53,108 nt of DNA. It comes from a virus. Below are positions 400 to 50,444 of the stretch, piece by piece. The position numbers were made by a program, and so were the translations under genes. The stretch lies in the IMG/VR virus record IMGVR_UViG_3300050016_000310, one strand, 5' to 3'. Every line of letters starts with the position of its first letter. Position 1 is the stretch's first letter. A model generated the notes under the pieces. It ran no database searches. It saw only the letters and a program-made list of their open reading frames with translations, and had not been told where the DNA came from.

Positions 400-2046
400 T
401 TACAAAGTTGCCTGGGTGTTGTTGCCCGCGCCGCCCGCGCCGCCCGTCGTCCCGGAAGCGGCTCCGCCCACCGTTCCGGCCGATCCAAAGGTTTCCATGC
501 AGGTGCTGGCCGTAACATTCAGAAGCGTAATGCGACCTCCGCTGCCACCCTGGCCACCGTTACCACCCGTTCCGGTACCAGCGCCGTTGGAACCGTTCCC
601 ACCATTCCCGCCCTGCGCCTGGAACATGTTGGTCTGCGCCGTCCCGAGCAACGCTGCATAGGCCACGTAAATCCAGCCCGCTCCTGCCCCTGAGCCCCCG
701 CCACCCCCGCCGGTATTCCCGGTCGCGGTCGCGCCACCATTGCCGCCATTTCCACCATTGACTTGAACGACATTGGCAGGACCGGTCGAATTCCGTTTGA
801 TCGTGTTGGCGTAGATCCCGATATTACCTGCGGAAGATCCTCCGCCTCCACTCCCACGACCCAAGACGCTCACGCTATCTCCCGCGCCGCTACCCCCACC
901 AGGGGCTCCCGCACCACTCGAAATAAGCGTGGCTCCTTTGAGTAAATTGACCGCGTAACGGCGCATGAGCAGAACTGATGTGATGAGCGCACCCAATCGG
1001 GAAGATCCGCCCGCTTGGTTACCCCCACTTGATCCAGATCCGCCACCGGCACCAGAAGTGCCAGACCCACCCCCATTGCCAACCGCGACAGCCCCTGTTG
1101 CGGTAGCCTGCGCCCCCACACCAACGATCCCCGCAATCCCTGCCCCACCTACGTTAGAGCCCCCCAGTGTGGCCGCTGCCCCGGCCGACACCCCCGCCGC
1201 CCCCGCCGCTGTTCCGGTGGAAGCTGCCCCGTTGTTGCCGTTGAAGAAAAGGGCTCCGGCAGGAGTATTCGTCCAATCCAGAATTCCACTGACAAATATC
1301 TTGTAAGCGCCACCATTGATCGTCCCGGTATTGTTGGACGTAACCTCAGCAGAAAACGTAATGGACGCGTCGCCCGTGCCGGTCGCCTTGGTCAGTGTGC
1401 CGGAAGAAGTTGGCGGTCCGGTCCCCACATTGCAGACTAAAGTCGTGCCACCTGCTATAGTCGTCTGGACCGTGAAGGTCTGGCCATTGTTTGTGTACGT
1501 CGCTCCGGCCGTCGCATTGGCCGAGGTCACGGTGAACGTGAAGATGGCAGGCCATGCCATGCTGGAGTAGTACATGTCACGGGTCAAAAGCGTCAGTCCG
1601 CTGGCTCCCAAGTAGGCTCCGTCGGACCCATCGCCCCAGTTCTCAATCACGTTCGTCGAAACTGGTCCCGTGATCCCGCCATACGGCAGGTTCACCCAAG
1701 ACGTGAGCCCATCGCCAAACTTGAAAAGCTGCGTGTCGGACTCAAGCCCCGGTTCTCCCGGGGCCAAAGTCGAATTATTGGTGAGCCAGGTAGCGGCCGG
1801 ATCTCGCCGCCATTGGTTTTTGCTCGTCGCCAGGATCGCAACCGACGAGAACGTGATGGTTGCGTCGCCCGTGCCGGAAGCTTTGGTCAGCGTGCCGGAA
1901 GACGTCGGAGCGCCAGAGCCATTCGTCGTCAGAGTGGTAGTGCCAGTGATCGTCAAATCGACCGTGAAAGTTGCCCCATTGTTGGTGTAGGTGCTACCGA
2001 CAGTCGCATTGGCAGCGGTTACGGTGAAAATATAAGTGCTGGCCAT
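400..2046 (-). CDS. Glycine-rich tail/whisker fibre protein (Mtd_N-like domain, two ~64-aa Thr-rich repeats, Gly-rich C-terminus)
   Basis: RRDPAATW..NSTLAPGEPGLESDTQLFKFGDG..W.NLPY motif, GDGSDG block and poly-Gly GGNGG/GGGGG repeats; lies in a fibre gene cluster. Confidence 0.75.
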   Translation of the reverse strand: MASTYIFTVTAANATVGSTYTNNGATFTVDLTITGTTTLTTNGSGAPTSSGTLTKASGTGDATITFSSVAILATSKNQWRRDPAATWLTNNSTLAPGEPGLESDTQLFKFGDGLTSWVNLPYGGITGPVSTNVIENWGDGSDGAYLGASGLTLLTRDMYYSSMAWPAIFTFTVTSANATAGATYTNNGQTFTVQTTIAGGTTLVCNVGTGPPTSSGTLTKATGTGDASITFSAEVTSNNTGTINGGAYKIFVSGILDWTNTPAGALFFNGNNGAASTGTAAGAAGVSAGAAATLGGSNVGGAGIAGIVGVGAQATATGAVAVGNGGGSGTSGAGGGSGSSGGNQAGGSSRLGALITSVLLMRRYAVNLLKGATLISSGAGAPGGGSGAGDSVSVLGRGSGGGGSSAGNIGIYANTIKRNSTGPANVVQVNGGNGGNGGATATGNTGGGGGGSGAGAGWIYVAYAALLGTAQTNMFQAQGGNGGNGSNGAGTGTGGNGGQGGSGGRITLLNVTASTCMETFGSAGTVGGAASGTTGGAGGAGNNTQATL

Positions 2047-2058
2047 CCCTATCCCCTT

Positions 2059-4809
2059 TTATCCAAGTGAGTTTCCACCATCGAAAATAACCGCAGGCGG
2101 TTGGGCCGCCGACCCACCTCCGTCAAAATTAGCCAGAGCCGGAATGTAAACCGGGTTGTTCCAAAACAGATTGTTCGCCCCGTCATTGGTAGGAACTGTT
2201 CCGGCAGCACCCACATTGGGTGGAAGCTGTAAGCTGATCGCAGAAGACGGATTCCAAAAAAGCGTCCCAACATTGGCCGCATTGAACTGTAGACTAGGGC
2301 TGGCTCCGCCATTGCCAATCAAGAAGTTGCTCAGGTACGTTCCACTGGACGTGTTGAGGGCTGCGCGAGTCGCGAGCACGATCGAGCCTGTTGTCGGATC
2401 GACTTTGTTCACGTAGGCGATGATCTGCGAGACGTTCGGAGACAGCGGCGCAGTCGTTTGGAATCCGCCCGCCACCGTGGCAGACAAATACAGGATCGCC
2501 CCTGCCGTATAGAGATGGGTATCGAGTCCACCCAGAATACCACCTGTCTGGATCCGTCCATAGCTGCCGGTCGCGATGGCTTCCATCGTGACGGCGAACG
2601 AAATGGTTGCAACCGAATTGCCCAGAGCCAGCGCGATTGTCGGGACCTGTCCGGTAATCCCAGCGAAAGAACCGTTCAGGTAGACGTTCTGACCGATCGG
2701 GATGGTCGAGCCTGAGTTGTTGTAAACGACGAAGACCGAGTCGCGACAGAGGGTCGTGACCATGCCGGTCTCATCGAGCAACCGAGCCCGTGAGAAGATC
2801 TGCGACAGGTCCGCATACTCCTCCATGATCCCGGCTGCCGGAGCGGCAGGAGTAGACGTGCGAGTCATGGCGACCGTGCTTGCCACGCTCACCGAGTTGA
2901 AGCCAGCGCTACCAGTCGCATCACGAGCCGCCAGCGTGTTCGGTACGCCGGTCGGACTGCTGTTCACCGGGTGAACGTGTCCCGCATCCGCATAGCGGTT
3001 GGTAGCGCCAGTAGCGCCAGTAGCGCCAGGTTGGATCGTCGTGATGTCGGAGAGCAGTCCCAGGATGATGTTGGAGTTCAGGAAGGAGCGCTGATCACCC
3101 AACACCGTGACGGTGCCACTGAGGGTCGTGTAGAGCGCCATCGGGACGCAGCCCGGGGGTAGAACGCCAGTCGTGTTGACTGTGACCACATGCGTAGTCG
3201 GGTCCACGTAGATCGCACCAGACGGCGTGTTGTCCGTCAAAGCCAGAGATCCAACAGGGATCGCGAACTGGGTGCCGTTGATTCTGATAGCGCCGCTGTT
3301 GTAGTTGACCGTCAGGCCACTTCCCGGGTAAGTGAGCCGCAGGACATTGGCGAGCGGCATCACGTTGACTAAGGACCGCTCATCGGTCGTACTCGTCACG
3401 GCGGTGGGGCCGGAGACAAACTGTGCGATCAGCAGAGCATCTACTCCAGGCGGCGTCGTGGAAGAGGTCACGAATGGTGCGCCGAGTGCGTTGATCGAAA
3501 TGTAGATGTAGCCCAGCGTGACGTTCGCAGCGACCGTGATGTTTCCCGCAGGGAGCTGAACGGTACTTCCATTCAGGCCGTTGGAAAAGCGCCCGCCCGT
3601 ATAGTTGATGACCAACCCGGCGAAGCTCGTGATGACGAATTCGTTCGGTCCCACCGTCGTATCGACCGTGATGACGCTGCCCGCAGTAGTCGCAACTGTC
3701 CCATTACCGCCAGTTACGGATCCACCGAAGACACCCGTCTGTCCGGTCGCCCCCGTGTTTCCGTTAATCCCGGCCAAGCCTTGGGGGCCGGTAGGGCCGG
3801 TAATGCCAGTAGCGCCATCCACACCCGTCAACCCGGTCGAACCCGTCTGGCCATTCGCGCCATCCACACCCGTCAACCCGGTCGAACCCGTCTGGCCGGA
3901 AGCTCCCGTCGCGCCGGTATTCCCTGCGCCCGTGGGACCGGTTGGCCCCGTGGGACCGGGAACGCTTGAATCAGCTCCCGTCGGACCTGTCGAGCCGGTA
4001 AATCCGGTGAATCCTGTCTGTCCCATCGCGCCGCCCGCGCCCGTCGGACCCACAGCTCCCGTTGCTCCAGTCGAGCCGGTGATTCCGATGCCCGTCTCAC
4101 CGGTCTCACCTTGATCACCATTCGCGCCCGTCGGACCCACAGCCCCCGTCTGTCCAGTCGAGCCGGTCGGACCCGTCACGGTAGAGTCAGCACCCGTCGG
4201 GCCTGTTACGCCTGCGGCTCCTGTCGAGCCGGTGGATCCGGTTGCTCCCGTCGCTCCCGCGCGGCCCGTGAAGCCCGTGCTGCCGGTCTGGCCACCTGCG
4301 CCGGTCGGACCCGTCACGGTTGAATCGGCGCCTGTGACGCCAGTCATGCCGGTCGCCCCCGTGCTGCCGGTCCCGCCAACCGCGCCGGTCGGACCCGTAT
4401 AACCAGAATTTCCAATTGCGCCGGTCGGACCCGTCGAGCCCGTTTCGCCCGCGCCCGTGACGCCAGTTAGGCCAGTCGCACCCGTCGCCCCCGTGCCGCC
4501 GGTCCCGCCAACCGCGCCGGTCGGACCCGTCGAGCCTGTCTGACCCGTCGTCCCGGTGTTGCCCGTCGGCCCCATCGCGATCCCCGTGGGGGAAGGCGGG
4601 GGAGGAGGGGGCGGAACGGGCGACCCGTTGTAGATGATCTGGAAAATGTCGGGGTTGTAGGGAGCGACGATCGCCGCATTGTACTGGGCCCGGCTGATCC
4701 CAACGGACGCCGCACCGGCAATATTGATCCCCTGCTGAATACCATCAAGGACGAAGATGAACGTCTGAGGGAGATTCGTGAGATTTTGAATCAGTGCAAC
4801 ATTTGCCAT
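2059..4809 (-). CDS. Collagen-like (Gly-X-Thr) fibre protein, 916 aa
   Basis: Roughly 90 consecutive G-X-T/G-X-Y triplets (about aa 80-360) follow a poly-Pro linker; the C-terminal domains are beta-rich. Confidence 0.8.
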
Positions 4810-4883
4810 CGAATCCCTCAGAAGGCCCCAGTGGATAAAACTGTGAGCCTCTTAAAGAATAAGACGAAAATGACAGTGGAGAA

Positions 4884-5060
4884 CTGCGCGACCTCGCGCA
4901 GGTGAGGGAATAAATCGAATGCCGGTCTTTCCCGGCTGCCAGCTGAAATTACACGTCCAGCCCGTGACCGTTATCGGCATAACGATCAGCCTCTACCCTT
5001 TTCGAACGCCTTTTTAGCGCCTCAACCCACGCCTACGCGCAGGGGGATGTGGGGATTCCA
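4884..5060 (-). ncRNA. Candidate structured non-coding RNA immediately 3' of the suppressor tRNA
   Basis: Several stems in a 180-nt ORF-free gap: TGATCGTTAT-GCCG-ATAACGGTCA (4965-4988), GCTGGA/TTCAGC, GCCGG-GAAAGA-CCGGC (4921-4936), CTGCGCG-AGGT-CGCGCAG (4884-4901) and CCCAC...GTGGG. Confidence 0.5.
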
Positions 5061-5062
5061 AA

Positions 5063-5138
5063 TGGAGGGGGCACAGGGATTTGAACCCCGGATCAAGACT
5101 TTGAAAGTCCCTGCTTTAGGCCACTAAGCTATACCCCC
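5063..5138 (-). tRNA. tRNA with anticodon UCA (opal/UGA suppressor), discriminator U73, encoded CCA
   Basis: Reverse complement folds as GGGGGTA TA GCTT-AGTGGCCTA-AAGC A GGGAC-TT TCA AA-GTCTT GATC CGGGG-TTCAAAT-CCCTG TGCCCCC T CCA. This is a full 76-nt cloverleaf with a 4-nt variable loop, unlike tRNA-Sec. Confidence 0.93.
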
Positions 5139-5176
5139 GACATACTAGGATCCCTTTACCATCCCGCGCCAGATTT

Positions 5177-5497
5177 TCAACCCGGGACCATCGACATCAT
5201 CCGGAGTCTCTTGGTCAAGCGCTTCCACCCCAAGCCCACCACGGCCGTCAGCTTGTCCTCCAGATCCGGCTCGCGGAAGAGTGCCCGAGGTCCCAGGGAC
5301 AGATCGTCCCGGACCCTGGCCTGCCAGAAAGCTTCCAGATCCTCCACCTGGAGCAACACGACTATCCCATTCCCCCACGGGGTCCCCGGGTTCTCCAAAC
5401 AGTACTGAGTGGCTCCATGGACCGCCTGGACAGCCTTCTGTTCAGGGGAGAGCCCCGCGTCCAGGATCACATAGAGTTTCTCCTCAGCCGACAGCAC
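5177..5497 (-). CDS. Peptidyl-tRNA hydrolase II (PTH2)-like protein
   Basis: GTG start at 5497 with GGAGG SD. Motifs KLYVILDAGLSPEQKAVQAVHG, VVLLQV and FREPDLEDKLTAV are typical of phage PTH2-like proteins. Confidence 0.75.
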   Translation of the reverse strand: MLSAEEKLYVILDAGLSPEQKAVQAVHGATQYCLENPGTPWGNGIVVLLQVEDLEAFWQARVRDDLSLGPRALFREPDLEDKLTAVVGLGWKRLTKRLRMMSMVPG

Positions 5498-5828
5498 GAG
5501 GCACCTCCAGGACATCAGCAGCCCGCTCCGCCTCCAGGCGCGGCCGGTAGACCGCCAGAAGCTCGTCAATCTGCTCCTGAAACCGGTACGGCGTGTATCG
5601 GCGCGACGGTTCGATCTGCTCCATCGTTCTACCGCGCAGGAGACATCTGACGATGTGTAGATAACGAAACTTCGCACCCAACCCCTGCGGATCCAGCAGG
5701 GGATAAGTAAAGGGAAGCTTCCGGGATTCATTGGACTGGGCTTGCCGGTAGAGAGGACGGGATTCGCGGATCTGGGCGGCCAAAGACTTCAGTTCAGTTT
5801 TCATTTCAAGCAAAACAACAGATTTCAT
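5484..5828 (-). CDS. Hypothetical phage protein (LK.LAAQIR...R.LHI..CLLRGR.MEQIE), translationally coupled to the PTH2-like gene
   Basis: ATG at 5828 with GGAG SD 6 nt upstream; its end overlaps the PTH2 start. Confidence 0.7.
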   Translation of the reverse strand: MKSVVLLEMKTELKSLAAQIRESRPLYRQAQSNESRKLPFTYPLLDPQGLGAKFRYLHIVRCLLRGRTMEQIEPSRRYTPYRFQEQIDELLAVYRPRLEAERAADVLEVPRAVG

Positions 5829-5884
5829 AAAATTCTCCAAAGGTTTGAGGGTGAGACTCATAGACAGAAACCTTGGAGATTTTT
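5829..5884 (-). promoter_or_regulatory. SD-sequestering hairpin (putative translational attenuator)
   Basis: On the minus strand AAAATCTCCAAGGTTT pairs with AAACCTTTGGAGAATTTT, so CTCC masks the GGAG SD of the ATG at 5828. Confidence 0.7.
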
Positions 5885-6437: not shown

Positions 6438-7046
6438 CTACGCTGGGGAGTAGCCCCACTCATGGAGGCTGTCGCCGTTCGTAAAGAGATCCTTGGCTTT
6501 GACCGTCTTGGTCAGGATTTGATATTGCCCGTTGAGGGCAGAGATTCCGTGCTGCTTTGCGTAGTTCCGGCTGATCGACACCCAATCCCCCGGGTGGATC
6601 ACCCTCTTTTCTGCGGGAGCGCTGGGGGGCTGTGCTTGGAGTTTTTCCAGCTCATCGGAGATCTGGTCGTAAAACTTGTGCCGATCCATTCCTCTCAGGT
6701 CCACGTCTCGTGGAAATTTCCCGTACTTCTGAACGTATCGTTTCTGCGTCTCGATCTCCTGGATCCGATCTTCCCTCGTTAGGGCTTTCGGGACCGCCCG
6801 GTAGATCTTCACCAAGGCATTAGGTCTGCCTCGGCAACGCTGCATCAGCCCCACGGAGAGTCGATCTTCTCCCCCGCCACCCTGATCCCCATAGAGACGG
6901 GCACCTTCAAACGAGTAGATGTCCTCCGGGTAGACCCCGGTCAGATCATGCATCGGAGCGCCGCTGTCTTTGTCCGGGGCGGAATGCTCACCCCGGTACT
7001 CCCCGGGAGCGACCGCAAGGATCCGGGCAAGCGCCGGGAAAAGCGT
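6438..7046 (-). CDS. Putative ADP-ribosyltransferase-fold domain; the coding frame begins directly after the UGA of 7047-7382
   Basis: The frame is open from 7046: TLFPALARILAVAPGEYRGEHSAP...GAPMHDL...YPEDIY...VKIYRAVPK...IHPGDWVSISRNYAKQHG...LHEWGY. The first standard start is at 6953. The R...S.S...E pattern suggests an ART fold (inference). Confidence 0.6.
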   Translation of the reverse strand, partial: TLFPALARILAVAPGEYRGEHSAPDKDSGAPMHDLTGVYPEDIYSFEGARLYGDQGGGGEDRLSVGLMQRCRGRPNALVKIYRAVPKALTREDRIQEIETQKRYVQKYGKFPRDVDLRGMDRHKFYDQISDELEKLQAQPPSAPAEKRVIHPGDWVSISRNYAKQHGISALNGQYQILTKTVKAKDLFTNGDSLHEWGYSPA

Positions 7047-7382
7047 TCAAGTCCTTTGCGCACGCTTGCGCTTCTTCGCATCATCGATCCGGTCCAGGCG
7101 AGCCAGGATGGAATTGGCGAGCTTCTGCTTCTTGCGCTCGACCAGTTCATTGGCCATCGCGCGGATCTGGGCGACCTGATTGTCAGACAACCCCAGCTCC
7201 TCCTCGCGGATCTCGGGCTCCGGGATCTTGGGCAAAAGTTTGTCGAGCGCATCCATGGCGTCTTCCGATCTGAGGGCCAACACGGTCATCTCCCGCGCCA
7301 ACACCTCATCGCCCGCCTTGAAGGTCTGGCGAGCGACGTAAATCAACCGCTGAGTGGGATGGGTGGGCGTGGAGTTCGGCAT
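7047..7382 (-). CDS. Hypothetical coiled-coil protein, ends in UGA in frame with the downstream ORF
   Basis: AAGG SD, TTATTC motif at 7407-7412, helical charged sequence. Confidence 0.7.
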   Translation of the reverse strand: MPNSTPTHPTQRLIYVARQTFKAGDEVLAREMTVLALRSEDAMDALDKLLPKIPEPEIREEELGLSDNQVAQIRAMANELVERKKQKLANSILARLDRIDDAKKRKRAQRT

Positions 7383-8380: not shown

Positions 8381-9499
8381 TCAGACTCTTACGCCGTGAA
8401 CGACCGCGCGGCCGTTGGCGACGATGAGCCCCATAATTTTTTGCATATACCATCCTCTTTCAGGCTTTCCTATGAGGTACATGTTGATAGGGGCCGTGGT
8501 AACATCCTTCCGGACCGTCTGAGCGCCGAGCACGTTCGGCGCCGACAGGAAGTAGAACTCGCCCGAGTTCAGGACCTTGAGGGTCTCGTACCGCAGACCG
8601 TCCGTGATCAGGTTCACGCCGTACATCGAGCCGAGCGAACCCGACATGATGACTTCGCGCTTGGTCACGGGATCGAAGTACGTGGCGAATTCTGGATCCG
8701 TCAGGATGTCGTTCCACAGGTCCATAGCGATGATCGCGGTGGCGCAAGGATTGCCCCACTGTTGGATCTGCGTCCGGGCCTGGGAGAACACTGACGGGGT
8801 GAAGGTCGTGAAACCCACAGGGTCGTTGTAGCTCGTGGCGGCGACGTTGAGCAGGCCGGTGAGGACCTGATCTTCCTTCACCATCATCTGCTCCAGGCCG
8901 TCGATGTACTTGTCATCGAGCAAATCGCCGGGAGCCTGTTCGAGTTCGCGGTCTTCGATCAGGATGTGCGCCTTGACGTAGAATTCGTCAGGGAACAGGT
9001 AGGACTGATTGATCTGGGAAGTGATCCCAACCGAATCGGTCGCCGCGTAGAACGCGAGGACGTCCTTTTTGCGGATCTTGATACGGCCGATGTCGCCCTT
9101 CTTCAGATCCTTGCGCATCATGATCTTGCGCAAGAAGCCGTCGCGTCCCATCGTTTCGAGCACTTCGTCGCCAAGGACTTCCCCGACGACCCGCCAGGTT
9201 TCGCCCGACTTGTCGGACATGGCAGCTTCGACGAGTTCAGCGCGCTGATTCGCGAAGTCGTGCTGTTCCTGGATCTCGCCAGTTGTCGCGGCAAGAGCCA
9301 GAGCGCCAATGCGCTGCATGACTTCTTTCTTGGAACCGGCGTTGATCTCGCCATTCTTGTCTTCGAACGCTCCGGCGCCGACTTCGACCTTGCCGTTGCG
9401 GGGATGGACCGCGAGAGCCGTGCGGCTTTCGCTGAGTTCATTACCCGTGCGGGTAATGACCACTGATTTCTTCGAGTAGGGATTGAGGGCGGTTGCCAT
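8381..9499 (-). CDS. Major capsid protein (HK97 fold, jumbo-phage type)
   Basis: 372 aa with strong codon bias and AGGAG SD. Motifs RDGFLRKIM, FPDEFYV..HILIEDRE, MVKED, W.DI...F..YFDPVTK.E....G.LG..YGV.LITDG.R resemble large-myovirus capsids. Last gene of the scaffold-decoration-MCP cluster. Confidence 0.85.
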   Translation of the reverse strand: MATALNPYSKKSVVITRTGNELSESRTALAVHPRNGKVEVGAGAFEDKNGEINAGSKKEVMQRIGALALAATTGEIQEQHDFANQRAELVEAAMSDKSGETWRVVGEVLGDEVLETMGRDGFLRKIMMRKDLKKGDIGRIKIRKKDVLAFYAATDSVGITSQINQSYLFPDEFYVKAHILIEDRELEQAPGDLLDDKYIDGLEQMMVKEDQVLTGLLNVAATSYNDPVGFTTFTPSVFSQARTQIQQWGNPCATAIIAMDLWNDILTDPEFATYFDPVTKREVIMSGSLGSMYGVNLITDGLRYETLKVLNSGEFYFLSAPNVLGAQTVRKDVTTAPINMYLIGKPERGWYMQKIMGLIVANGRAVVHGVRV

Positions 9500-19791: not shown

Positions 19792-20103
19792 TTAATCCGA
19801 CAAATCGGCGGCCTTGATCTTGGTATGAGCAAGCTTTAATTGCTCGCGGGCTTTCGTCACTCGCTGAATCACGCGCTGAAGGTTCCCGACTTTGACCTGC
19901 AAGGTATCGCAAAATACGAAGAGCTGCACGGCCGTGAGCTGCTGGTACCCGGACTCGACGCGCGAGAGCGCGCTCTGATCCAATCCCAGAAGCGGCGCTA
20001 ACGTCGTCTGGTTCAAATCTTGAGTCTTCCGAATGCGCTGCAAATAGCGTCCGATCGCCTTGGCATAATCAGAATCCGGGTCGATTTTCTTTTTCACAAT
20101 CAT
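19792..20103 (-). CDS. XRE-family HTH transcriptional regulator
   Basis: IGRYLQRIRK.QDLNQ..LA..LGLDQSALSRVESG. Confidence 0.85.
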   Translation of the reverse strand: MIVKKKIDPDSDYAKAIGRYLQRIRKTQDLNQTTLAPLLGLDQSALSRVESGYQQLTAVQLFVFCDTLQVKVGNLQRVIQRVTKAREQLKLAHTKIKAADLSD

Positions 20104-20873: not shown

Positions 20874-21260
20874 ATGGCCGACTCTATCGCGAGGATCCAA
20901 TTTGCTCGAATCAATTCGACGTTCAGTGTCCAAAATCTGGACCATCTGAAAGCGCTCGAAATTTCCTCCTACAATAAGTGGATCGATCCTGTCGGAACCT
21001 CCTGGCTCCGCGCCGAATTCAAAGCCCCCGTCTTAACCTATTCCGAGCAGCTTTTGCATCGGGATGGATTCATCGGGACGAAGATTTTGATTCATTTGGG
21101 CGAGCGGGAAAATGAATTGTATGGCATCTACGGCCCCCCTAAAAAATGGGGAGAGCTGCGGTGCCACCTGGCTTACCCTTGCCGCTTCGCATTGCATTAT
21201 CAACTGATTATCTTGGACTGGGAGATTTTGGAATGGCACGAGACGAAAACGAAGATCTAA
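20874..21260 (+). CDS. Hypothetical protein (first gene of the tail-morphogenesis run)
   Basis: AAGGA SD; TTAATT motif at 20850; 3' part of listed ORF 20586-21260. Confidence 0.6.
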   Translation: MADSIARIQFARINSTFSVQNLDHLKALEISSYNKWIDPVGTSWLRAEFKAPVLTYSEQLLHRDGFIGTKILIHLGERENELYGIYGPPKKWGELRCHLAYPCRFALHYQLIILDWEILEWHETKTKI

Positions 21261-22480
21261 AGAACGTCATGGGCGGGCGCATGAATAAAGCCAAGCCGGT
21301 CGGCAAGACTGCCTTCAATCCCCAGAAGCCCGCCGCGCCCACGCGGCCTCCGGGTGCTCGGGAGGGCGTCAAATCTCCCATGCCGATCGTTCCACCCCAC
21401 GAACTCGGAAAATACCCACAGGCGGACGACAAGACCCCTTTCGCGGGCGACCGTTCGCGTAGCTTTGACCCCGAACTCAATGAATTTGCCCTGAAGGAAA
21501 TCGCCGAAGAGCGCGGTGTCTCCGTCGAGCAGCTTCTCCAAACCCCCGGTCGGAAACTCGAACAGAAGGTAACCTCCATGGAACCCACCGCCCCTCCTCC
21601 CCAAGCCCGCAACGCCGCTGACTTGAAACGCATGCTCGACGTCCAGAAGAAGTCGGCGGCCCCTCAGCGCGCTCCCTCTTCCTTCACCCACCCGGAGCCC
21701 GAGAAATTCCCGGAGCCTCCCCGCGCGCCATCGGCCGAGAGCCAACGGCTCGAACTGGAGCTGGCGGCCTTGGACCTTCAAAAGAAGGAGCTGGAACTCC
21801 GTCGGCAACTTGTGGAGGCCGCACAGATCGAACAGCCTCCACTTCCGCCCGCCCCCTCGAATAAGACCCGAGTCGTCCATCCCGTTCTCCAGAGGATGCG
21901 GGAGAAGCTCTCGCTCGACAATCTAGTCCCCGCGACGATCGAGATCGAAGGGCTCCTGTTTGAAATGCTTCCTCCGCCTCCCGGGACCTACCCCTGGATT
22001 TTGGAAAAGTTTGCCGAACTGAACCAAATAGATAAGCGCGTGGGGCAGATCACGCTTCAGAAATGCACTGCCGCGCTGGGGCTCGTCCGGGTGGACGGAG
22101 CACCGATCGCCGAAGTCTTAGGGCTCGTGCCCGAAGGCGCCGTGACGAATCCCCTTAGACCTGACGTGGGAATCCGGATCATGACAGCTCAGGCCCTCTA
22201 CGAAATGCTCGAAGGAGAGCCTTCCCTGGATCAGCTCTTTCCTTTCAACCCCGTGATAGCTGGTAAACTTGCTCAAGTATTCGACCAGGCATTCAAAAAT
22301 CTGGATCTGAAATCCTCCCTGGATCCTTTGCTGCGGCATTTCATCTGCCCGATTCCGGATTGCGCAGAAGCAGGAGACTACTCGGTGGCTAAAGGAACTC
22401 CGGTCTTCTGCCAGGTCCATGGGGTTCCGATGGAAGACAGGGGCCTGTCGGCTGAGGTAAAATCCCTCCCTTTGCCCTAA
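21233..22480 (+). CDS. Putative tail assembly chaperone (short, G-like form) with C-terminal Zn-finger
   Basis: GGAG SD, ATG 21233; CPIPDC...FCQVHG; ends at a slippery CCCTTTG just before TAA; upstream of the tape-measure-like gene. Confidence 0.6.
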   Translation: MARDENEDLKNVMGGRMNKAKPVGKTAFNPQKPAAPTRPPGAREGVKSPMPIVPPHELGKYPQADDKTPFAGDRSRSFDPELNEFALKEIAEERGVSVEQLLQTPGRKLEQKVTSMEPTAPPPQARNAADLKRMLDVQKKSAAPQRAPSSFTHPEPEKFPEPPRAPSAESQRLELELAALDLQKKELELRRQLVEAAQIEQPPLPPAPSNKTRVVHPVLQRMREKLSLDNLVPATIEIEGLLFEMLPPPPGTYPWILEKFAELNQIDKRVGQITLQKCTAALGLVRVDGAPIAEVLGLVPEGAVTNPLRPDVGIRIMTAQALYEMLEGEPSLDQLFPFNPVIAGKLAQVFDQAFKNLDLKSSLDPLLRHFICPIPDCAEAGDYSVAKGTPVFCQVHGVPMEDRGLSAEVKSLPLP

Positions 22481-22953
22481 AGGCGTCCCGGAAGGATCCA
22501 GATCTCTCCGTCATCGGATACCTCTGGGCCGCCTCCAGCAGAAGCTTTGAAGAATTGGCCGCGCTGACTCCTGAGCAGCGTGCCTTCGGATATTTCTGGA
22601 CGAAGGAAGTGGAAAACGAACGAGTTGCCCAGCTGGGTAGGCTCCTCGGAACGAACTTCACAGCAGGGGAAATCCGGTCTTGGGCAGCGAGCAAAAATAA
22701 GTCGGGAGAATTCGAAAACCACTCCGATATCCTGATCCCGCTCTCCTTTTCCTTCCGACCGGAATTTCGAGATAACCTCATCAAGATGGTTGGCGCCGAC
22801 GGCCTCTTGATGCCTAGCGATTACAAAACCCGGAAGGGTGAAGTCGTCGTAGATCTGAGCAAGGTTTCGCCTCGGGAGTTCTTGGATTTCTTTGGGAAGA
22901 AGCAGCTCCCTACGCCCCGCACTCGCCCTCAGGCCCCCCAGGACGAAGGTTAG
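22468..22953 (+). CDS. -1 frameshift extension of the tail chaperone (GT-like form)
   Basis: The -1 frame is open from the heptamer C CCT TTG (22468-22474): PFALKASRKDPDLSVIGYLWAASSRSFEELAALTPEQR...; no SD-associated start is present. Confidence 0.65.
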   Translation, partial: PFALKASRKDPDLSVIGYLWAASSRSFEELAALTPEQRAFGYFWTKEVENERVAQLGRLLGTNFTAGEIRSWAASKNKSGEFENHSDILIPLSFSFRPEFRDNLIKMVGADGLLMPSDYKTRKGEVVVDLSKVSPREFLDFFGKKQLPTPRTRPQAPQDEG

Positions 22954-27738: not shown

Positions 27739-28362
27739 GTGAAAAACCCCCCTTCGGAGACCGCCCGCAAGAATGCACGAGCACGCACTAAAGCGTGGCG
27801 ACTTGCGAACCCGGAGCGATACCTTGCGGCACAGCAAGCCTATAGACGTGCGAACCCGGAAAAGGTGCGTGCAAGCACCGTAGCCTGGCATCAAGCCCAT
27901 CCTGAAAGGGTGAGGACGAACCAACGCGCCTGGAAGAAAAGAAATCCCCGCTACGCTACCGAGAAATACCAAACGGACATCAAGACCCGTCTAGCAAGTA
28001 CCCTGCGCACCCGGATCCGGGATGTCCTCCGAGGGCGAGCCAAGACAGGTTCGGCCGTTAGGGATCTCGGATGCTCCATGCAGGAACTCCAGGCGCACCT
28101 GGAGAAGCAATTCTACCCCCGTCAGACAGGTGAGGCGATGACCTGGGAGAACTGGGGTGTTTCAGGTTGGCACGTGGACCACATCCGGCCACTCATTACG
28201 TTTGACCTGACCGATTCACTCCAATTTAAAGAGGCTGTTCATTTCAGCAACTTGAGACCTCTTTGGTCCGAGCACAACCTCACCAAAAATCGTAAGACAG
28301 ATTCGGAATGGGCCGGTTACAATCAGATGCAAGCACAGAGAGGAATCTCCTGTGAAAGTTGA
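27739..28362 (+). CDS. HNH homing endonuclease
   Basis: N-terminal (W/Y)R.ANPE repeats; LGCS..EL..HLEKQF...MTWENWG..GWHVDHIRP...HFSNLRPLW..HN..K. Confidence 0.85.
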   Translation: MKNPPSETARKNARARTKAWRLANPERYLAAQQAYRRANPEKVRASTVAWHQAHPERVRTNQRAWKKRNPRYATEKYQTDIKTRLASTLRTRIRDVLRGRAKTGSAVRDLGCSMQELQAHLEKQFYPRQTGEAMTWENWGVSGWHVDHIRPLITFDLTDSLQFKEAVHFSNLRPLWSEHNLTKNRKTDSEWAGYNQMQAQRGISCES

Positions 28363-28605: not shown

Positions 28606-29397
28606 GTGAACGCCACCTCTTACCCTTCCCTCTCTCGCATCCTCGCGCATAATGCCCCAGTGCGGATCGAAGAGCAAGACTTCACGCCCGAGCTGGCTGC
28701 AAAGCTGAAGGATCTCCGCATCGCGGCGCAGAGCCCCGATGGAGCCATCTCCTGCTTTTCCAAATGGCTGGCGGAGCCCGAATCTGATTACGCTCCTGGG
28801 GCTGTGGAAGTGGCCTACCAGGGCGACGTTCCAATCGGTTGGTCTGGGCTAGGAAAAACCCGGGGCCGCTACTCCACTCCTATCATCGGAGTCTTTGTTC
28901 TCGATTCCCTTCGCGGTCAGGGCCTGGGTGAACGACTAATCCAATCCGCCCTCCGTTCTTATAAAAAAAGTTTTGATCCCGAGCTGGACGACCCGTCGAT
29001 TATCTACGACTCCGCCAGTTGGCCGAAGCTCCGCGCCATGATTGAGGCCGAAGGCTTCCAGCCGAGGGGTTCCGACGATGATTATAATTATCCGCTGGTC
29101 GCCGCCGTCCTGGCAGATGCACCCTTGCCGGAACTCACCGATCCTGAATTCTGGAAACGAAACTTCGAGCGCACGCAGGACCGGCCCGGCAAGCGCCTGG
29201 GCGTTGAGCTGCGGCACTATCTGGAGTTCCATCACAAGGAGCACCCGAAGGGTAGCTACGTGACGGACCAGGATCTTTCCAACATGCTCAAGATGAGCGA
29301 TCGGGAGTTCTCCCGGATGGGGCTCGCCGTCCAATACCTTATCGCAAGAAAAGCCCTCCAGAAGGGCAAAACTCCCAACCGCTACCGGGTGATCTAA
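28606..29397 (+). CDS. GNAT acetyltransferase domain plus C-terminal domain
   Basis: IGVFVLDSLRGQGLGERLIQSAL (acetyl-CoA-binding motif A). Confidence 0.8.
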   Translation: MNATSYPSLSRILAHNAPVRIEEQDFTPELAAKLKDLRIAAQSPDGAISCFSKWLAEPESDYAPGAVEVAYQGDVPIGWSGLGKTRGRYSTPIIGVFVLDSLRGQGLGERLIQSALRSYKKSFDPELDDPSIIYDSASWPKLRAMIEAEGFQPRGSDDDYNYPLVAAVLADAPLPELTDPEFWKRNFERTQDRPGKRLGVELRHYLEFHHKEHPKGSYVTDQDLSNMLKMSDREFSRMGLAVQYLIARKALQKGKTPNRYRVI

Positions 29398-31473: not shown

Positions 31474-31986
31474 ATGTTCGAAAATAAAAAATATGATTCT
31501 ACAGTCCGAGTTGAAAACGGCAGCGTCAGTGAGTCCCAGGCCAATGCTCAGAGCAGTGCTCTGGGTGGAACCGAGCCCCCGAATCCCGAGGTTAAGCCTA
31601 AGATTAAGCGCAAGCATCTGACGGCTGAATACAAGCTGAGGGTTTTATCCGAGGCGGACCGTCTGAGAGGCGATCCTGGGCGAATCGCGGCGCTTCTTCG
31701 TCGCGAAGGCCTGTACGCCTCACACCTGAGCAACTGGAGGCGCCAGCGGTCCGTGGGCGCGTATGCGGCCCTCTCCGCGACGCGTGGTCGGAAGCCCGAG
31801 CATGACGCGAAAGATCTCAAGATCGAGCAGCAGGGCAAAGAGCTGGATAAGCTCAGGACGTGGAAGAAGCACGCGGAGTTGATCATGGACGCTCAAAAAA
31901 AAATTGCTCTCATCCTGGGGAATCCGATCCAGGTGGAGACTCTTCCGAGGCTTCCGAACCTGGATCTGGACGAGGAGAACTCATGA
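31474..31986 (+). CDS. IS3-family OrfA (HTH)
   Basis: KRKHLTAEYKLRVLSEAD...ALLRREGLYASHLSNWR; A9 slippery run at 31895-31903. Confidence 0.9.
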   Translation: MFENKKYDSTVRVENGSVSESQANAQSSALGGTEPPNPEVKPKIKRKHLTAEYKLRVLSEADRLRGDPGRIAALLRREGLYASHLSNWRRQRSVGAYAALSATRGRKPEHDAKDLKIEQQGKELDKLRTWKKHAELIMDAQKKIALILGNPIQVETLPRLPNLDLDEENS

Positions 31987-33032
31987 CTCAGATTGAAACT
32001 TTGCATTCTGAGTTCTTGATATCGCTCTCATGGCTCAGCTCCGCCTTGGGTGTGGACCGCTCCACGATCTATCGCCACCGCTGGAAACGAAACCCCGAGG
32101 AATCCCCGGCGGACTCCGCGATAGTGGGACCTAAGCGCAAACCGTTCCGAAGCCTAAGCGAGGAGGAAGAGAAGCGAGTGCTGGAGGCCTGCCACAGTGC
32201 GCGTTTTGAGGACAAAGCGCCGCCGGAGATCTACGCGACACTCCTCGACGAAGGTATTTATCTGGGTTCCGTGCGCACGATGTACCGGATCTTGGAAAAG
32301 CACCAGGAGGTCCGGGAAAGGCGGGCCATCGTTCGTCACGCGCACTACGCCAAACCCGAACTTCTGGCTACTGCGCCGAATCAGGTATGGTCCTGGGATA
32401 TTACCAAGCTCCTGGGGCCCGTGAAGTGGACCTATTATTACCTGTACGTCCTGCTCGATATCTTCAGCCGATACGTCGTGGGCTGGATGCTGGCGGAGCG
32501 CGAAAGCGGGCTCTTCGCCAAGCACCTGATCGCCGAGGCTTGCGAAAAACAGCAGGTCAAGCCGGAGGGCTTGATTATCCACTCGGACCGCGGATCGCCG
32601 ATGATCTCAAAGCCTGTGGCGCAGCTCATGGGAGACTTGGGGATCACCAGAAGCCTGAACCGCCCTCACGTGAGCAACGACAACCCATACTCCGAGGCGC
32701 AGTTCAAAACGATGAAGTATTGCCCCGCATTTCCCGAACGTTTTGGCTCGCCACAGGACGGACGCGCATTTTGCCGCACGTTCTTCCCGTGGTACAACAC
32801 GGAGCACCGCCATGGCGGGATCGGGTACTATACGCCAGAATCAGTGCATTACGGCAAAGCGCAGGCATTCTTCGAGACCCGCGCTCAAGCTCTCAACGCA
32901 GCCTACGCCATGCATCCTGAACGCTTCGTGAGGAAACCTCCGCGCCCAGCTCAGGTCCCGACAGAGGCCTGGATCAACCCACCCAAGCCAGAAAGCGAGG
33001 ACATGCCTGACGACTATATTCTTGTTGTTTAA
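31983..33032 (+). CDS. IS3-family OrfB DDE transposase (rve domain)
   Basis: PNQVWSWDIT, LDIFSRYVVGW, HSDRGS, SNDNPYSEAQFKTMK, WYN.EHRH. Confidence 0.95.
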   Translation: MTQIETLHSEFLISLSWLSSALGVDRSTIYRHRWKRNPEESPADSAIVGPKRKPFRSLSEEEEKRVLEACHSARFEDKAPPEIYATLLDEGIYLGSVRTMYRILEKHQEVRERRAIVRHAHYAKPELLATAPNQVWSWDITKLLGPVKWTYYYLYVLLDIFSRYVVGWMLAERESGLFAKHLIAEACEKQQVKPEGLIIHSDRGSPMISKPVAQLMGDLGITRSLNRPHVSNDNPYSEAQFKTMKYCPAFPERFGSPQDGRAFCRTFFPWYNTEHRHGGIGYYTPESVHYGKAQAFFETRAQALNAAYAMHPERFVRKPPRPAQVPTEAWINPPKPESEDMPDDYILVV

Positions 33033-38115: not shown

Positions 38116-38466
38116 ATGGCCGGGGGCAAAAAACGAGTTGAGCTAAAGTTTTTCGACGCAGAGGCTGTGAAGGCTGCCCTGTTCCGATACCATTCAGATC
38201 ATGTCTTCCGGGAGGAAATCGACAGGCGGGCGGATAAACTCTCGAATCGAGTCCGGGCGGAGGCTTTCCCGCTTTCTGTGGAACTGCTGCTCCATGGCGC
38301 GGCCGTCATGATCGAGGGCGTAGTGGGCAAGGAATCCCACGTCACCCTCCTGGAGCCCTCCCACACGTCCGTCCATTACATCAATGACATCATTCCGGCA
38401 AAATCCCCCCGCAGAAAATTGCGCCTGGTCAGACTTCCTGATTCACTTGACCCTCCCTTGAAATGA
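38116..38466 (+). CDS. Hypothetical protein
   Basis: 116-aa ORF divergent from the SWIM gene. Confidence 0.55.
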   Translation: MAGGKKRVELKFFDAEAVKAALFRYHSDHVFREEIDRRADKLSNRVRAEAFPLSVELLLHGAAVMIEGVVGKESHVTLLEPSHTSVHYINDIIPAKSPRRKLRLVRLPDSLDPPLK

Positions 38467-38577
38467 GAAGGGAATGTCTTAAACTTATATGTGTTTTGTC
38501 AAGCCACAGCAATGTTGACAGGCATGTACTTTTTCGATAATTCGGCCAGGTTAATTTTTACCAAAGGCGTTTTATCA

Positions 38578-38769
38578 ATGAATCATTCTATAATTGACTT
38601 TGAAAAAAAACTGACCGAAGCAATTGCCAGGCGGAATGAAGAGCAAGCGAAGGGAAAACAGGCTCCTAAACTAGGCCATCAACCTGAACCCAAGCTGATT
38701 CCATTGAGCGGGATCATCGAGACTCTCTTCAGCAAGCTCTTGCGGAACCTAGGAAAGTCCGTAGACTGA
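38578..38769 (+). CDS. Small hypothetical protein
   Basis: AAGG SD; TTGACA-containing AT-rich region upstream. Confidence 0.45.
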   Translation: MNHSIIDFEKKLTEAIARRNEEQAKGKQAPKLGHQPEPKLIPLSGIIETLFSKLLRNLGKSVD

Positions 38770-38847: not shown

Positions 38848-38924
38848 GTTACCATCGTCTAGCTGGACTAGGACATTCCCCTTTCACGGGAGGAAGCCGG
38901 GTTCGATTCCCGGTGGCGCCACCA
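38848..38924 (+). tRNA. tRNA-Glu (UUC) with a defective acceptor stem
   Basis: GTTACCA TC GTCT-AGCTGGACTA-GGAC A TTCCC-CT TTC AC-GGGAG GAAG CCGGG-TTCGATT-CCCGG TGGCGCC A CCA. Confidence 0.85.
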
Positions 38925-38968: not shown

Positions 38969-40267
38969 ATGCAAAAACCTGCTCCCACCAAGACTTCCGA
39001 GTACCGAACCGACCGGGCCATCCGGGAGAAGATCTTCAAAATCCCTCTCCTGCCCCAGGACAAAGCAGTCCTCAAAATCGCGGAGCTGGACACTCTCCTC
39101 TACCCCCACGCGCTCGCGCTCACTAAGCGCTTCCCTCTCCTCCGCAATTATTTCGAAGAGGTCATGTTCCGGATCGCTTCCGGCAACACACAGGGCAAAA
39201 ACTACTACAACAAAGAAGACCACGAGGACGACAAGAAGAAAAAAAAGCTGCTCCAGAACTCGGAAAAACGGGTCCTAATCGAGAGCTTTTCTCTTCTACG
39301 TCTGAAGGACCTGCCGGAGCGCTTCTGCCACGTCATCAAGCACGCAAGCTTCCTTCGAGGCGTCTTCGAAGAGGCGGTGGAGCTTTTCCTCGAAACCACC
39401 TTGTCCTACCCCGACGATCTGAAGGCCATGCAGCTGGCTGCCAGGGAGCACTCGCCCGATTTCGTCGAGCTGGAAACCAAAATCCGCCGAGTCGAAAATG
39501 AACTGGGTTGCCATGACCCAGCCGAGATCCTCGAATGGGTTGCGAAGGCAGATCATGTCTGGACCCAATACGTCTTGCTCCGCGAGGAGCTGATCTCCCC
39601 CTACTTCCGGCTCGTCTACTCACTCGCGCAGAAGTACGCCTCGTCCCCCGCCCAAATCCTTGATAACTTCCAAAACGGTGTCTTCGGGCTCGTGCGCGCG
39701 GTCAAATGCTACACGCCCACCCGCTTCGCCGCCTTCTCAGTAGTCGCAACGCAGTGGATCAAGCAATCGATACTTCTTCAATTAAAAAGCGAAGTTAACT
39801 TGATTAAGCTGCCCGTTGCGTCGTGGCATCTTTACCAAAAACTCGAAAAAATTCGGAACGAGATCGAGAAGACGACGCAAAAATCCGCGACTCACGAAGA
39901 GATTGCGGCGGCGGCCAAATTACCTGTCGAAAAGATTCAGAAGATTTATGAAAACGCCAAGCTTGTCCAGGTCCTGAGCCTGAACAATCCCACCCACAAT
40001 GAGGATCAGCAGGCGGCTGACAGCAAATGGAACATGGAGTCGATCCCAGCGTCCCAGGACCAGCACGACCTCTATGAACTGAAGAGCGAGTTTCTGTTGA
40101 TCGAAAAAGTCCTGGATCTGATGGACGAGGAGGAACGGGTGATCTTCGGTCTCGTCTCCGGCTGCTTCGATCTCATTCCCGAGCCCGCACTGGATCCCAC
40201 CGAGATCTTGAGGGAAACAATCAGACAAAAAGCGGCGCGGCGTCATTTAACCCTTATTTTTAAGTAG
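38969..40267 (+). CDS. Phage RpoD-like (sigma70-family) sigma factor with degenerate region 4
   Basis: Region 2: REELI..YFRLVYSLAQKY...LDNFQNGVFGLVRAVKCY....FS..A.QWIKQSI. Region 3: IKLPV...T.EEIA....LP.EKI...SLNNP. Confidence 0.85.
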   Translation: MQKPAPTKTSEYRTDRAIREKIFKIPLLPQDKAVLKIAELDTLLYPHALALTKRFPLLRNYFEEVMFRIASGNTQGKNYYNKEDHEDDKKKKKLLQNSEKRVLIESFSLLRLKDLPERFCHVIKHASFLRGVFEEAVELFLETTLSYPDDLKAMQLAAREHSPDFVELETKIRRVENELGCHDPAEILEWVAKADHVWTQYVLLREELISPYFRLVYSLAQKYASSPAQILDNFQNGVFGLVRAVKCYTPTRFAAFSVVATQWIKQSILLQLKSEVNLIKLPVASWHLYQKLEKIRNEIEKTTQKSATHEEIAAAAKLPVEKIQKIYENAKLVQVLSLNNPTHNEDQQAADSKWNMESIPASQDQHDLYELKSEFLLIEKVLDLMDEEERVIFGLVSGCFDLIPEPALDPTEILRETIRQKAARRHLTLIFK

Positions 40268-40272: not shown

Positions 40273-41043
40273 TTGAGTATGAAACACCTTGCCGCCCCCA
40301 ACGGGGCCAGTATCCTCGCGGAAGCCCAAGCGGCACTTAGGGCCGCCCAGGTTCAGACGGCCGAGGCGCGCGACGAAGCCCGGGAGCCCGCCGGTAATCC
40401 GCCGGTAACCCTCCGGGACCTCCCGGCCGTCCAGGGGATCCAAGGCATCCCGGATGAATTCGATCTGCCGCCGCAGGCCCACCGCCCGGCGTTCACGGCG
40501 ACAGCCTTCCTGGAGGCACCCAACCCCTACCCCCAGCACATGCCCCAGAAGTTTGGGGATGTTCCCTCCCAGCTGCGCGAAACGCAGCAGATCAATACCT
40601 TTGAAATCAAGAAACTGAACTTGGCCGCCACGATCGAGGCGCTGGAGCGGGCGGTCATGTCCCAGGAGGCGATGCCTTCCCCCGACGCGGCGTTTGCCGT
40701 CGCGGCGCTCTCTGAGCAGGTCATGAAGTTGACCCGCGAGCTGGAGAAGTCGCAAGATCCGGCCAAGATCTACCGGCGGGTCGTGGATGAGATCTTAGCT
40801 AAATTAGTTGAGCACATGATCTACACGATCTGCTCGGAGATGAAGCGGCTCAAGCAGGATAGCCACCAGCTGCTTTCGGCGGATCGCGAGGGCCCGATGA
40901 GCAAGGCGATTGACGAGACGACCCTTCGGGTCGGACCGATCTTAAGTGACGTCCTAGAAATCGCCAAGAAGCGCATGCTCAAGATCTTTGATCTGAAAGA
41001 GGTCAAGGATCATTCCCCCGATCATATGGAAACACCCCCATGA
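40273..41043 (+). CDS. Hypothetical helical protein upstream of terL (possible small terminase)
   Basis: Position and helical C-terminal half only. Confidence 0.5.
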   Translation: MSMKHLAAPNGASILAEAQAALRAAQVQTAEARDEAREPAGNPPVTLRDLPAVQGIQGIPDEFDLPPQAHRPAFTATAFLEAPNPYPQHMPQKFGDVPSQLRETQQINTFEIKKLNLAATIEALERAVMSQEAMPSPDAAFAVAALSEQVMKLTRELEKSQDPAKIYRRVVDEILAKLVEHMIYTICSEMKRLKQDSHQLLSADREGPMSKAIDETTLRVGPILSDVLEIAKKRMLKIFDLKEVKDHSPDHMETPP

Positions 41044-43302: not shown

Positions 43303-43656
43303 ATGAGCCAGGCGTTAACCAAAGATGAAATCTATCGGATCCTGGCAACCCGGCACTCAGGTCAAGATCCCAAAATCCTTAAAGAAATTTCCTACAATCT
43401 AGCCCTGGCGAGCACGACTGAGAGCAGTCTGGACGGCAGAGCTGCGCAGGCATTGAAGCGCCTCCAGGGGGACACCAACCCTCCCAGCAAGGTTCTCCAT
43501 CAAGCGGCGCAGGCGGCCTCCCACAATCAGCGCAATCGGTGCCCCATCTGCAAAAGCGCGATGGAAGTAGTAAAACTTCTGGAAGATCAGCCCGCATACC
43601 ATTGTGTGCAGCACAAGATCACGGAACCATTTCCCAAGGAAACCGGGGGCACGTAA
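43303..43656 (+). CDS. Small Zn-ribbon protein between terminase and portal
   Basis: CPICKSAM...YHCVQH; TAATG coupling to the portal gene. Confidence 0.7.
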   Translation: MSQALTKDEIYRILATRHSGQDPKILKEISYNLALASTTESSLDGRAAQALKRLQGDTNPPSKVLHQAAQAASHNQRNRCPICKSAMEVVKLLEDQPAYHCVQHKITEPFPKETGGT

Positions 43657-50391: not shown

Positions 50392-50444
50392 CTGATAAAT
50401 AATCCCCCCGGATAATTCTGACTGAAAAAGGTAAATACCTCCAT

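Follow-up and report, generated by a model that had tools for sequence, protein, structure and literature searches.

Suppressor tRNAs are already known from published jumbo phages that keep the standard genetic code, in both opal and amber form. The Agrobacterium jumbo phage Atu_ph07 encodes an opal-suppressor tRNA(UCA) and has 267 UGA stops (Attai et al. 2018, PMC6102473), and the Xanthomonas jumbo phage XacN1 carries two tRNA(CUA) (PMC5852040). These earlier reports gave neither a target nor a rationale for the tRNAs, and they propose no enzyme partner (PMC6102473, PMC5852040). In recoded phages, the suppressor tRNAs belong to code 4, where TGA is read as Trp, or to code 15, where TAG is read as Gln (bioRxiv 10.1101/2021.08.26.457843; Yutin et al. 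2021, PMC7886860). Among the relatives of recoded phages, one that keeps the standard code was reported to carry a TGA suppressor, and it may represent a precursor state (Borges et al., bioRxiv 10.1101/2021.08.26.457843). Canonical PTH2 was noted in jumbo phages without a link to tRNA (Iyer et al. 2021, PMC7824862). In a full-text literature search, we found no paper linking peptidyl-tRNA hydrolase with phage suppressor tRNAs.

The DNA analysed here, called the window below, is a stretch of 53,108 nt (IMG/VR record IMGVR_UViG_3300050016_000310). It comes from a large soil phage, covers 53 kb of a contig that is at least 120 kb long, and encodes a tRNA(UCA). Like Atu_ph07 and XacN1, the window phage combines the standard code with a stop-anticodon tRNA despite the matching stop codon being common, and client genes were identified in none of the three. 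With the recoded phages it shares a phage-encoded tRNA that would read a stop codon in a host presumed to use the standard code. The window tRNA has U73 whereas bacterial tRNA-Trp has G73, and no recoding was detected in the window. The neighbourhood differs from that in Atu_ph07. The tRNA(UCA) lies 38 nt from a gene for a divergent Pth2-like protein, whereas the canonical PTH2 genes of Atu_ph07 are unlinked. We propose that such a pair represents a module, in which a divergent Pth2-like gene stands on the same strand beside a stop-anticodon tRNA, usually CUA, UUA in Lak phages and UCA here. The novelty lies in the opal form of the module, which here belongs to an ungated split-gene subfamily (genes without an early in-frame stop codon) and stands in a GC-rich genome with heavy use of TGA.

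tRNA(UCA) and the genetic code of the window

ARAGORN found two tRNAs in the window, one of which lies on the minus strand with the anticodon tca. The coordinates of this tRNA and of the main features around it are collected in the table.

Table. Main features of the window, in order of position.
Feature	Coordinates	Strand	Remarks
Collagen-like tail fibres	400-4809
Spacer, tRNA 3' end to tail-fibre gene	4810-5062	-	253 nt, several hairpins
tRNA(UCA)	5063-5138	-	76 nt, class I cloverleaf, U73, CCA encoded, A36-A37-A38; ARAGORN, Rfam
Pth2-like gene	5177-5515	-	112 aa (ATG 5515); ends 38 nt upstream of tRNA(UCA), same strand
125-aa helical protein	5484-5861	-	Overlaps Pth2-like start by 32 nt; ends in TGA
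Candidate UGA-readthrough client	6438-7046	-	202-codon frame continuing directly from TGA; one haplotype only
111-aa ORF	7047-7382	-	Ends in TGA 7049-7047; stand-alone gene in relative G001
Capsid gene	8381-9499
Sigma factor	38969-40267
TerL	41266-43287
Portal with intein	43539-47393	+
Primase	49447-50460

The tRNA(UCA) matched Rfam RF00005 over its full length (model positions 1-71) with 59.3 bits at a gathering score of 29, and no non-canonical pairs were flagged. The acceptor stem of 7 bp (G1-C72, G2-C71, G3-C70, G4-C69, G5-C68, U6-G67, A7-U66) is followed by U8 and A9, and by a D arm with the 4-bp stem GCUU/AAGC and G18-G19. The anticodon stem of 5 bp (GGGAC/GUCUU) closes the loop UUUCAAA, which reads as U33, U34 C35 A36, A37 A38. 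The variable loop is GAUC (4 nt), and the T arm has a 5-bp stem (CGGGG/CCCUG) and the loop UUCAAAU. The molecule thereby shows the features of a canonical elongator tRNA: the 7/4/5/5 stems, U8, A14, G18-G19, U33, UUCRANY and G53-C61. The A36-A37-A38 context is typical of tRNAs for codons that start with U. The hallmarks of tRNA-Sec are a 13-bp acceptor/T domain (8/5 in bacteria; or 9/4), a long variable arm and G73. A tRNA-Sec identity was ruled out for 5063-5138, which has a 7/5 domain, a 4-nt variable loop and U73; the 'SeC' label given by ARAGORN reflects the tca anticodon only. The sequence-only reading of this DNA had described an intact cloverleaf with the anticodon TCA, U73 and a variable loop too short for tRNA-Sec, and ARAGORN, Rfam and our own reading of the sequence agree with it on all these points.

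That reading had also raised the possibility of a sequencing error in the anticodon. The tRNA is identical in four assemblies, namely the window, L008 (JGI 3300050350), L116 (Logan SRR35912764) and L117 (Logan SRR35911387), so a one-off error is excluded. When the 2.9 kb around the tRNA in the three further assemblies, which stem from the same phage population, was compared with the window, three differing positions were found, none of them inside the tRNA.

The spacer between the tRNA and the tail-fibre gene contains one terminator-like hairpin at 4936-4921. A minimal HDV-like ribozyme, the tRNA-linked theta ribozyme, is known directly 3' of a phage suppressor tRNA (PMC10879173). When 4700-5300 was compared with Rfam at E<=10, there was no match besides the tRNA itself. 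The fold of the spacer was no more stable than that of shuffled sequences (MFE z-score -1.6). Exact and anticodon-wildcard patterns of tRNA(UCA) gave no matches in IMG/VR, and neither did two exact patterns in GTDB genomes; a BLAST search of five bacterial genomes returned T-arm fragments only. The best matches among cultured phages were Vibrio phage tRNA-Gln(UUG) with 78-80% identity, which is uninformative on the identity of the tRNA.

To assess which amino acid the tRNA could accept, we scored it against published bacterial identity sets (Table 1 of PMC9976931). The Cys set consists of U73, G2-C71, C3-G70, G34, C35 and A36. Four of these six elements are present (U73, G2-C71, C35, A36), and G3-C70 and U34 replace C3-G70 and G34. 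The Trp set consists of G73 as the major element, A1-U72, the pairs G2-C71 to G5-C68, A9 and C34 C35 A36. Here, seven of ten elements are present (G2-C71, G3-C70, G4-C69, G5-C68, A9, C35, A36), and U73, G1-C72 and U34 stand in place of G73, A1-U72 and C34. From the Gly set (U73, G1-C72, C2-G71, G3-C70, C35, C36), the tRNA has U73, G1-C72, G3-C70 and C35, which is again four of six, with G2-C71 and A36 replacing C2-G71 and C36. The Gly identity set also applies to the tRNA-Gly(UCA) of code 25. Cys had been preferred over Gly and Trp in the sequence-only reading. The U73 and G2-C71 on which this rested are indeed there, but the scores do not establish the preference. To judge from these elements, Cys appears to be a reasonable candidate, as one of Cys, Trp and Gly, each of which is partly matched.

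We assessed whether TGA is still a stop codon in the window. The window has 56% GC. Its ORF coverage is 93.8% under code 11. Reading TGA as a sense codon raises it to 95.7%, and this gain does not exceed the gain obtained with TAA as sense. In a curated set of 52 genes, the stops are TAA in 22, TGA in 21 (about 40%) and TAG in 9, and the TGA-ended genes include the major capsid gene and terL. The median distance to the next in-frame stop is 30 codons after TGA and 23 after TAA in the curated genes. Efficient UGA readthrough looks costly, because the capsid gene and 20 others end in TGA without back-up stops.

As a test for recoding, every frame of the window was translated with TGA as X and compared with G001, the nearest large relative, a 223-kb IMG/VR phage whose major capsid protein and TerL are 86% and 70% identical to those of the window. 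Among the best-scoring frames, no alignment carried homology across a window TGA, and none of the genes validated against G001 has an in-frame TGA. G001 itself uses the standard code over 223 kb. It has tRNAs for Tyr, Asn, Thr, Gln and Leu, and neither a tRNA(UCA) nor a Pth2-like gene was found in it. Another relative, L104 from the metagenome scan, has no tRNA. The standard code is used in the 53-kb window, and there is no wholesale code 4 or code 25 reassignment there. It had been claimed from the sequence that UGA works as a stop and that wholesale recoding is absent. Both claims hold in the window: the TGA-ended genes include those for the capsid protein and TerL, the 4-nt RTGA start/stop overlaps listed at 20100, 34337, 36097 and 41040 are all present, and the proposed comparison of coding density shows barely any shift. 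Suppression of UGA, if it occurs, would be partial or timed.

Three pairs of ORFs looked like genes split by TGA and were rejected. The terL gene and 43303-43656 lie 1.7 kb apart in G001, and homology begins at the ATG of the second gene. The frame that links 40273-41043 with terL does not code, and the space between them is taken by a 74-aa gene in another frame. For 27739-28362 and 28606-29397, the homology belongs to a 71-aa gene, also in another frame. A further same-frame TGA pair is formed by 38116-38466 and 38491-38769, and neither of these ORFs has a Pfam family or a match in G001.

The Pth2-like gene and its linkage with stop-anticodon tRNAs

The gene next to the tRNA has an alternative SD-led start (GGAGG, 6 nt, GTG at 5497), which would give 106 aa. 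Its frame (5731-5177) is open and has no in-frame TGA. The window protein alone gave no direct sequence match reaching significance in Pfam, PHROG or PDB. An exhaustive phmmer search found 210 representative homologues. Pfam PF01981 (PTH2) was matched by 22 of the 50 aligned family members with a best E of 6e-10, and the family profile matched Pth2 chains in the PDB (24bt, 2zv3, 1rzw) with E from 3e-5 to 1e-2. A single-sequence model of the 112-aa protein was of no use (pLDDT 50). The alignment-based AF2 model reached a pLDDT of 92.7, and its top Foldseek matches were all Pth2 (2zv3, 1wn2, 1q7s, 1xty; TM 0.64-0.71, probability 1.00). Profile and model together show the Pth2 (peptidyl-tRNA hydrolase) fold for the product of 5177-5515. 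Canonical Pth2 (PF01981; archaeal, eukaryotic) and the window protein thus share the fold and the Q-x-x-H motif, which is kept in the Pth2-like family. The window protein differs from canonical Pth2 in falling below Pfam significance, and its family lacks the two-residue Gly-Lys insertion of the canonical enzyme. At this position the family consensus is Gln, and the window protein has K. Since the insertion is missing, the hydrolase activity of the family is only putative.

The Pth2-like gene is preceded by a gene for a 125-aa helical protein, so that the order on the minus strand is 125-aa protein, Pth2-like protein, tRNA(UCA). Immediately downstream of the unit follow the late tail-fibre genes. 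The 125-aa protein belongs to no Pfam or PHROG family, and the ESM Atlas returned nothing reliable. A tblastn search placed homologues of the 125-aa protein immediately ahead of the Pth2-like domain in 16 loci. In eight of them (L122, L123, L127, L130, L131, L133, L136, L140) the two parts are fused into single ORFs of 185-189 aa. The split form, with an overlapping start and stop, is present in the window, L119, L128, L141 and L144. The junction stop is TGA in the window, L119 and L141, and TAA in L128, L142 and L144, where the tRNA is CUA. Because TAA junctions occur beside CUA tRNAs, the junction stop is not a lock that the tRNA opens. A mini-ORF at 5918-5883 (-), MFRSH-TGA-IFKPP-TAA, consists of ATG, four codons, TGA, five codons and TAA. 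It lies downstream of a TTGACA-type hexamer, in frame with the 125-aa gene and closed off from it by the TAA.

To characterise the neighbourhood of the family, we used a set of 80 loci, 79 from the IMG/VR scan with the family alignment and one Logan contig (L118). A tRNA(CUA) was present in 68 of the 80, always on the same strand as the Pth2-like gene and at -537 to +1562 nt from it. CUA accounted for 70 of the tRNAs found across these loci. Among the 74 loci with at least one tRNA, it was the one closest to the gene in 61, and in 35 loci there was no other tRNA. In L118, which is among the closest homologues with readable context (47% identity), the tRNA(CUA) lies 14 nt downstream and has U73 and G1-G3 paired to C70-C72, as in the window tRNA. 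The discriminator N73 in 52 distinct module tRNAs is A in 33, U in 13, G in 4 and C in 2, and the first three acceptor pairs vary too, so no single acceptor identity is conserved across the module.

Lak megaphages are TAG-recoded. In the cultured and curated phage collection, they alone contained Pth2-like homologues, and in the two Lak genomes examined, Lak-C1 (MK250029.1, about 250.7-255.9 kb, L199) and Lak-B7 (MK250026.1, L200), the homologue has a tRNA(UUA) at a distance of about 600-750 nt. In Atu_ph07, no tRNA was found within 1.5 kb of any of its three canonical PTH2 genes, and the linkage is therefore a property of the divergent Pth2-like subfamily.

What we call a gate, M-x(1-7)-TAG before the conserved domain, is present in the Pth2-like gene of 42 of the 80 loci. 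Zero to four codons, with no start codon among them, separate the TAG from the domain. Such a gene can be translated only if the neighbouring tRNA reads UAG, and this comparative evidence argues for functional suppression by the module tRNAs. Many of the loci read well under code 11, with TAG as a stop in neighbouring genes (e.g. L182, L148, L161), and a few look TAG-recoded (L194-L198).

The window shares with the CUA loci the same Pth2-like family and the same tight link to a stop-anticodon tRNA, on the same strand and well within the spacing limit of about 1.6 kb. It differs from them in the UCA anticodon, in the 125-aa helical domain that precedes the enzyme (fused to it in relatives) and in the gate: no early in-frame stop matching the anticodon occurs in its Pth2-like gene. 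The other members of its subfamily, fused and split alike, have no gate either. The fused-type relatives (L122-L140) are ungated and have kept their CUA tRNA. Since fused and split genes without an in-frame stop retain the tRNA neighbour, the linkage is more basic than the gate. ARAGORN also reported four-base anticodons within the 2.5-kb flanks of Pth2-like genes in L121, L136, L140 and L157 (gtta, taaa, ctaa, ggaa).

A candidate client and the possible roles of tRNA(UCA)

Upstream of the unit, a 202-codon frame, the only candidate client found in the window, continues directly from the TGA of a 111-aa ORF. This ORF is 65% identical to 119304-119627 of G001, which ends at TAA/TAG with nothing in frame behind. 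The first 31 codons after the TGA (7049-7047) contain no ATG, GTG or TTG, and the annotated ATG is at 6953. In an alignment of 22 sequences (A3), the residues Y166, H170, A172, P173 and P180 are invariant, and all of them precede the ATG at 6953; the 31 codons encode the motif E-Y-R-G-E-H-x-A-P. Because invariant residues precede any start codon, an intact client protein would require UGA readthrough in the window allele. It turned out that the window and L117 have TTTT at 7041-7042, and the siblings L008 and L116 have TT. In these siblings, the client is an ordinary ORF of 214 aa that starts with ATGATG and overlaps the upstream gene. The in-frame UGA is thus a by-product of a +2 frameshift allele. 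The tRNA(UCA) is identical in both haplotypes. Readthrough could rescue the frameshift allele as a 314-aa fusion, and this rescue is not what tRNA(UCA) exists for. No conserved in-frame TGA client was found within the 53-kb window.

The client family consists of phage proteins of about 200 aa with the invariant Y-R-G-E-H-x-A-P and a C-terminal H-E-W-G-Y motif (alignment A3). PHROGs labels it 'ParB C-terminal domain', and some members have ParB-like or GNAT domains. A tag-like peptide, FPALARILA, precedes the client-family protein in the window.

We give a probability of about one half to the reading that tRNA(UCA) is a functional phage opal suppressor within the conserved module of a Pth2-like gene and a stop-anticodon tRNA, with low or timed UGA decoding and with the hydrolase acting on it. 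In its favour are the intact tRNA shared by four assemblies, the Pth2 fold of the neighbour, the linkage and the gates in other phages, and the standard code of the window. Against it stand the ungated Pth2-like gene, the lack of a conserved TGA client in the 53 kb covered, a sole candidate client that occurs in one haplotype although both have the tRNA, the absence of the tRNA and the Pth2-like gene from G001, the many TGA stops without back-up, for which strong suppression should be harmful, and the altered Gly-Lys position of the family. A host synthetase would charge the tRNA, which would then read UGA in competition with RF2. The decoding would most likely be low-level or temporally limited, with the phage otherwise terminating at UGA; we infer weak or limited suppression because unprotected TGA stops abound. 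The Pth2-like enzyme most likely would hydrolyse the ester on tRNA(UCA) or on the products of suppression, in a limiting or clean-up role. In the gated versions, synthesis of the enzyme would depend on suppression, and this would create a negative feedback. Suppression may serve to make minor extended protein variants, to counter host defence or to tolerate nonsense or frameshift alleles.

The opal tRNA of the window fills the slot that amber and ochre tRNAs occupy beside one Pth2-like family in many unrelated phages. As a consequence, the pair of enzyme and tRNA would be the functional unit, the choice of stop codon would be interchangeable and the inserted amino acid may be secondary. An enzyme with its own tRNA offers a concrete biochemical handle on a puzzle that dates from the first jumbo-phage genomes, and it bears on how phages may drift into alternative genetic codes without prior loss of the stop codon concerned. 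A bolder version, which we regard as unlikely, is a general self-contained enzyme-tRNA device for any stop codon. Its enzyme would hydrolyse the ester bond on its own partner tRNA, a gated enzyme would clamp suppression at a low and safe level, and the UGA version would tolerate, and may rescue, the frameshift allele at 7041-7042 by readthrough of the UGA at 7049-7047 into the 314-aa fusion. Were this true, the phage would show stop-codon recoding at its very beginning, in a genome rich in both GC and TGA.

Several other explanations were considered. It is unlikely that the tRNA is a relic, which switched its anticodon (CUA to UCA or similar) and persists with little or no function. A relic would be in keeping with a Pth2-like gene that is ungated and no longer needs suppression, with the lack of a conserved TGA client in the window, with G001 doing without the module and with the abundance of unprotected TGA stops. 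However, all structural positions are intact, the Rfam score is high, CCA is encoded and the A36-A37-A38 context is retained; besides, the ungated fused-type relatives still keep a CUA tRNA, so linkage outlasts gating. A somewhat smaller chance falls to a role outside decoding: the tRNA would mainly serve the Pth2-like enzyme as its substrate, its cofactor or a decoy, and stop reading would be incidental. Counter-defence against host systems that target tRNA or translation is one example. The link between enzyme and tRNA spans three stop anticodons, and the varying N73 suggests that the inserted amino acid matters little. Nevertheless, the anticodon is nearly always a stop anticodon, and the matching early TAG in 42 loci indicates that decoding is under selection. 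We consider it improbable that the tRNA helps with sense codons, as a Trp (or Cys) tRNA whose U34 wobbles onto UGG and for which UGA reading is a side effect. The pairs at acceptor positions G2-G5, A9, C35 and A36 fit the bacterial Trp set, and U34-G pairing is possible; U73 and G1-C72 replace the major Trp determinants G73 and A1-U72, and no sense codon is read by CUA or UUA, the anticodons found in the module relatives.

The code may differ elsewhere in the genome. The window is about 44% of the contig of at least 120 kb, and genes outside it, or a late gene set, might use TGA as sense in the manner of code 4 or 25. Recoded phages often recode late or lysis genes only (bioRxiv 10.1101/2021.08.26.457843). 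Still, the window includes the late structural genes for capsid, portal, terminase and tail fibres, which are not recoded, and G001 keeps the standard code throughout. The route proposed for recoded phages starts from low GC and depleted TGA, and the relatives of recoded phages are TGA-depleted and low in GC; the window, with 56% GC and about 40% TGA stops, is the opposite. We therefore find hidden recoding quite improbable. The lowest probability, a very small one, goes to a UGA(+1) event, in which UGAG is read as four bases, or the ribosome shifts by +1, and the 125-aa ORF is joined to the Pth2-like domain. The UGA that closes this ORF sits one base out of frame before the conserved EKLY start of the domain, the hypothetical fusion aligns without gaps with the single-ORF relatives, L119 has the same geometry with UGA-A, and the four-base anticodons given above lie near Pth2-like genes. 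But the anticodon loop of tRNA(UCA) has the usual length of 7 nt, a separate SD-led start is present for the Pth2-like ORF, and TAA stands at the junction in L128, L142 and L144 beside CUA tRNAs, which means that the stop does not track the tRNA.

Other features of the window

The second tRNA, Glu(UUC) at 38848-38924 (+), lies just upstream of the sigma-factor gene; it scored 35.4 bits and has two non-canonical pairs in the acceptor stem. At 22456-22950 (+), a stretch of 173 aa is 60% identical to G001. The homology begins immediately behind an in-frame TGA, yet the first start codon comes only at 22555. With respect to the 444-aa gene at 21146-22480 (+), this region is shifted into the -1 frame, which suggests a conserved programmed -1 frameshift within 22456-22480.

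The intein in the portal gene contains a LAGLIDADG endonuclease domain, as judged by Pfam on the identical gene in L114, and it splits the PHROG portal matches. The terL gene of G001 has an insert of about 1.2 kb (150345-151529) between segments that are contiguous in the window at 41677-41772. It may be an intron, an intein or a homing-endonuclease insertion.

An IS-type transposase at 31860-33032 (+) is 52-68% identical to hundreds of copies in soil and sediment MAGs of Acidobacteriota, Nitrospirota, Planctomycetota and others, and it looks like a mobile element inside the phage. Its matches spread over many phyla and point to no single host. The gene at 47397-48191 (-), which adjoins the portal gene, encodes a protein with a dual-specificity phosphatase (DSPc) domain.
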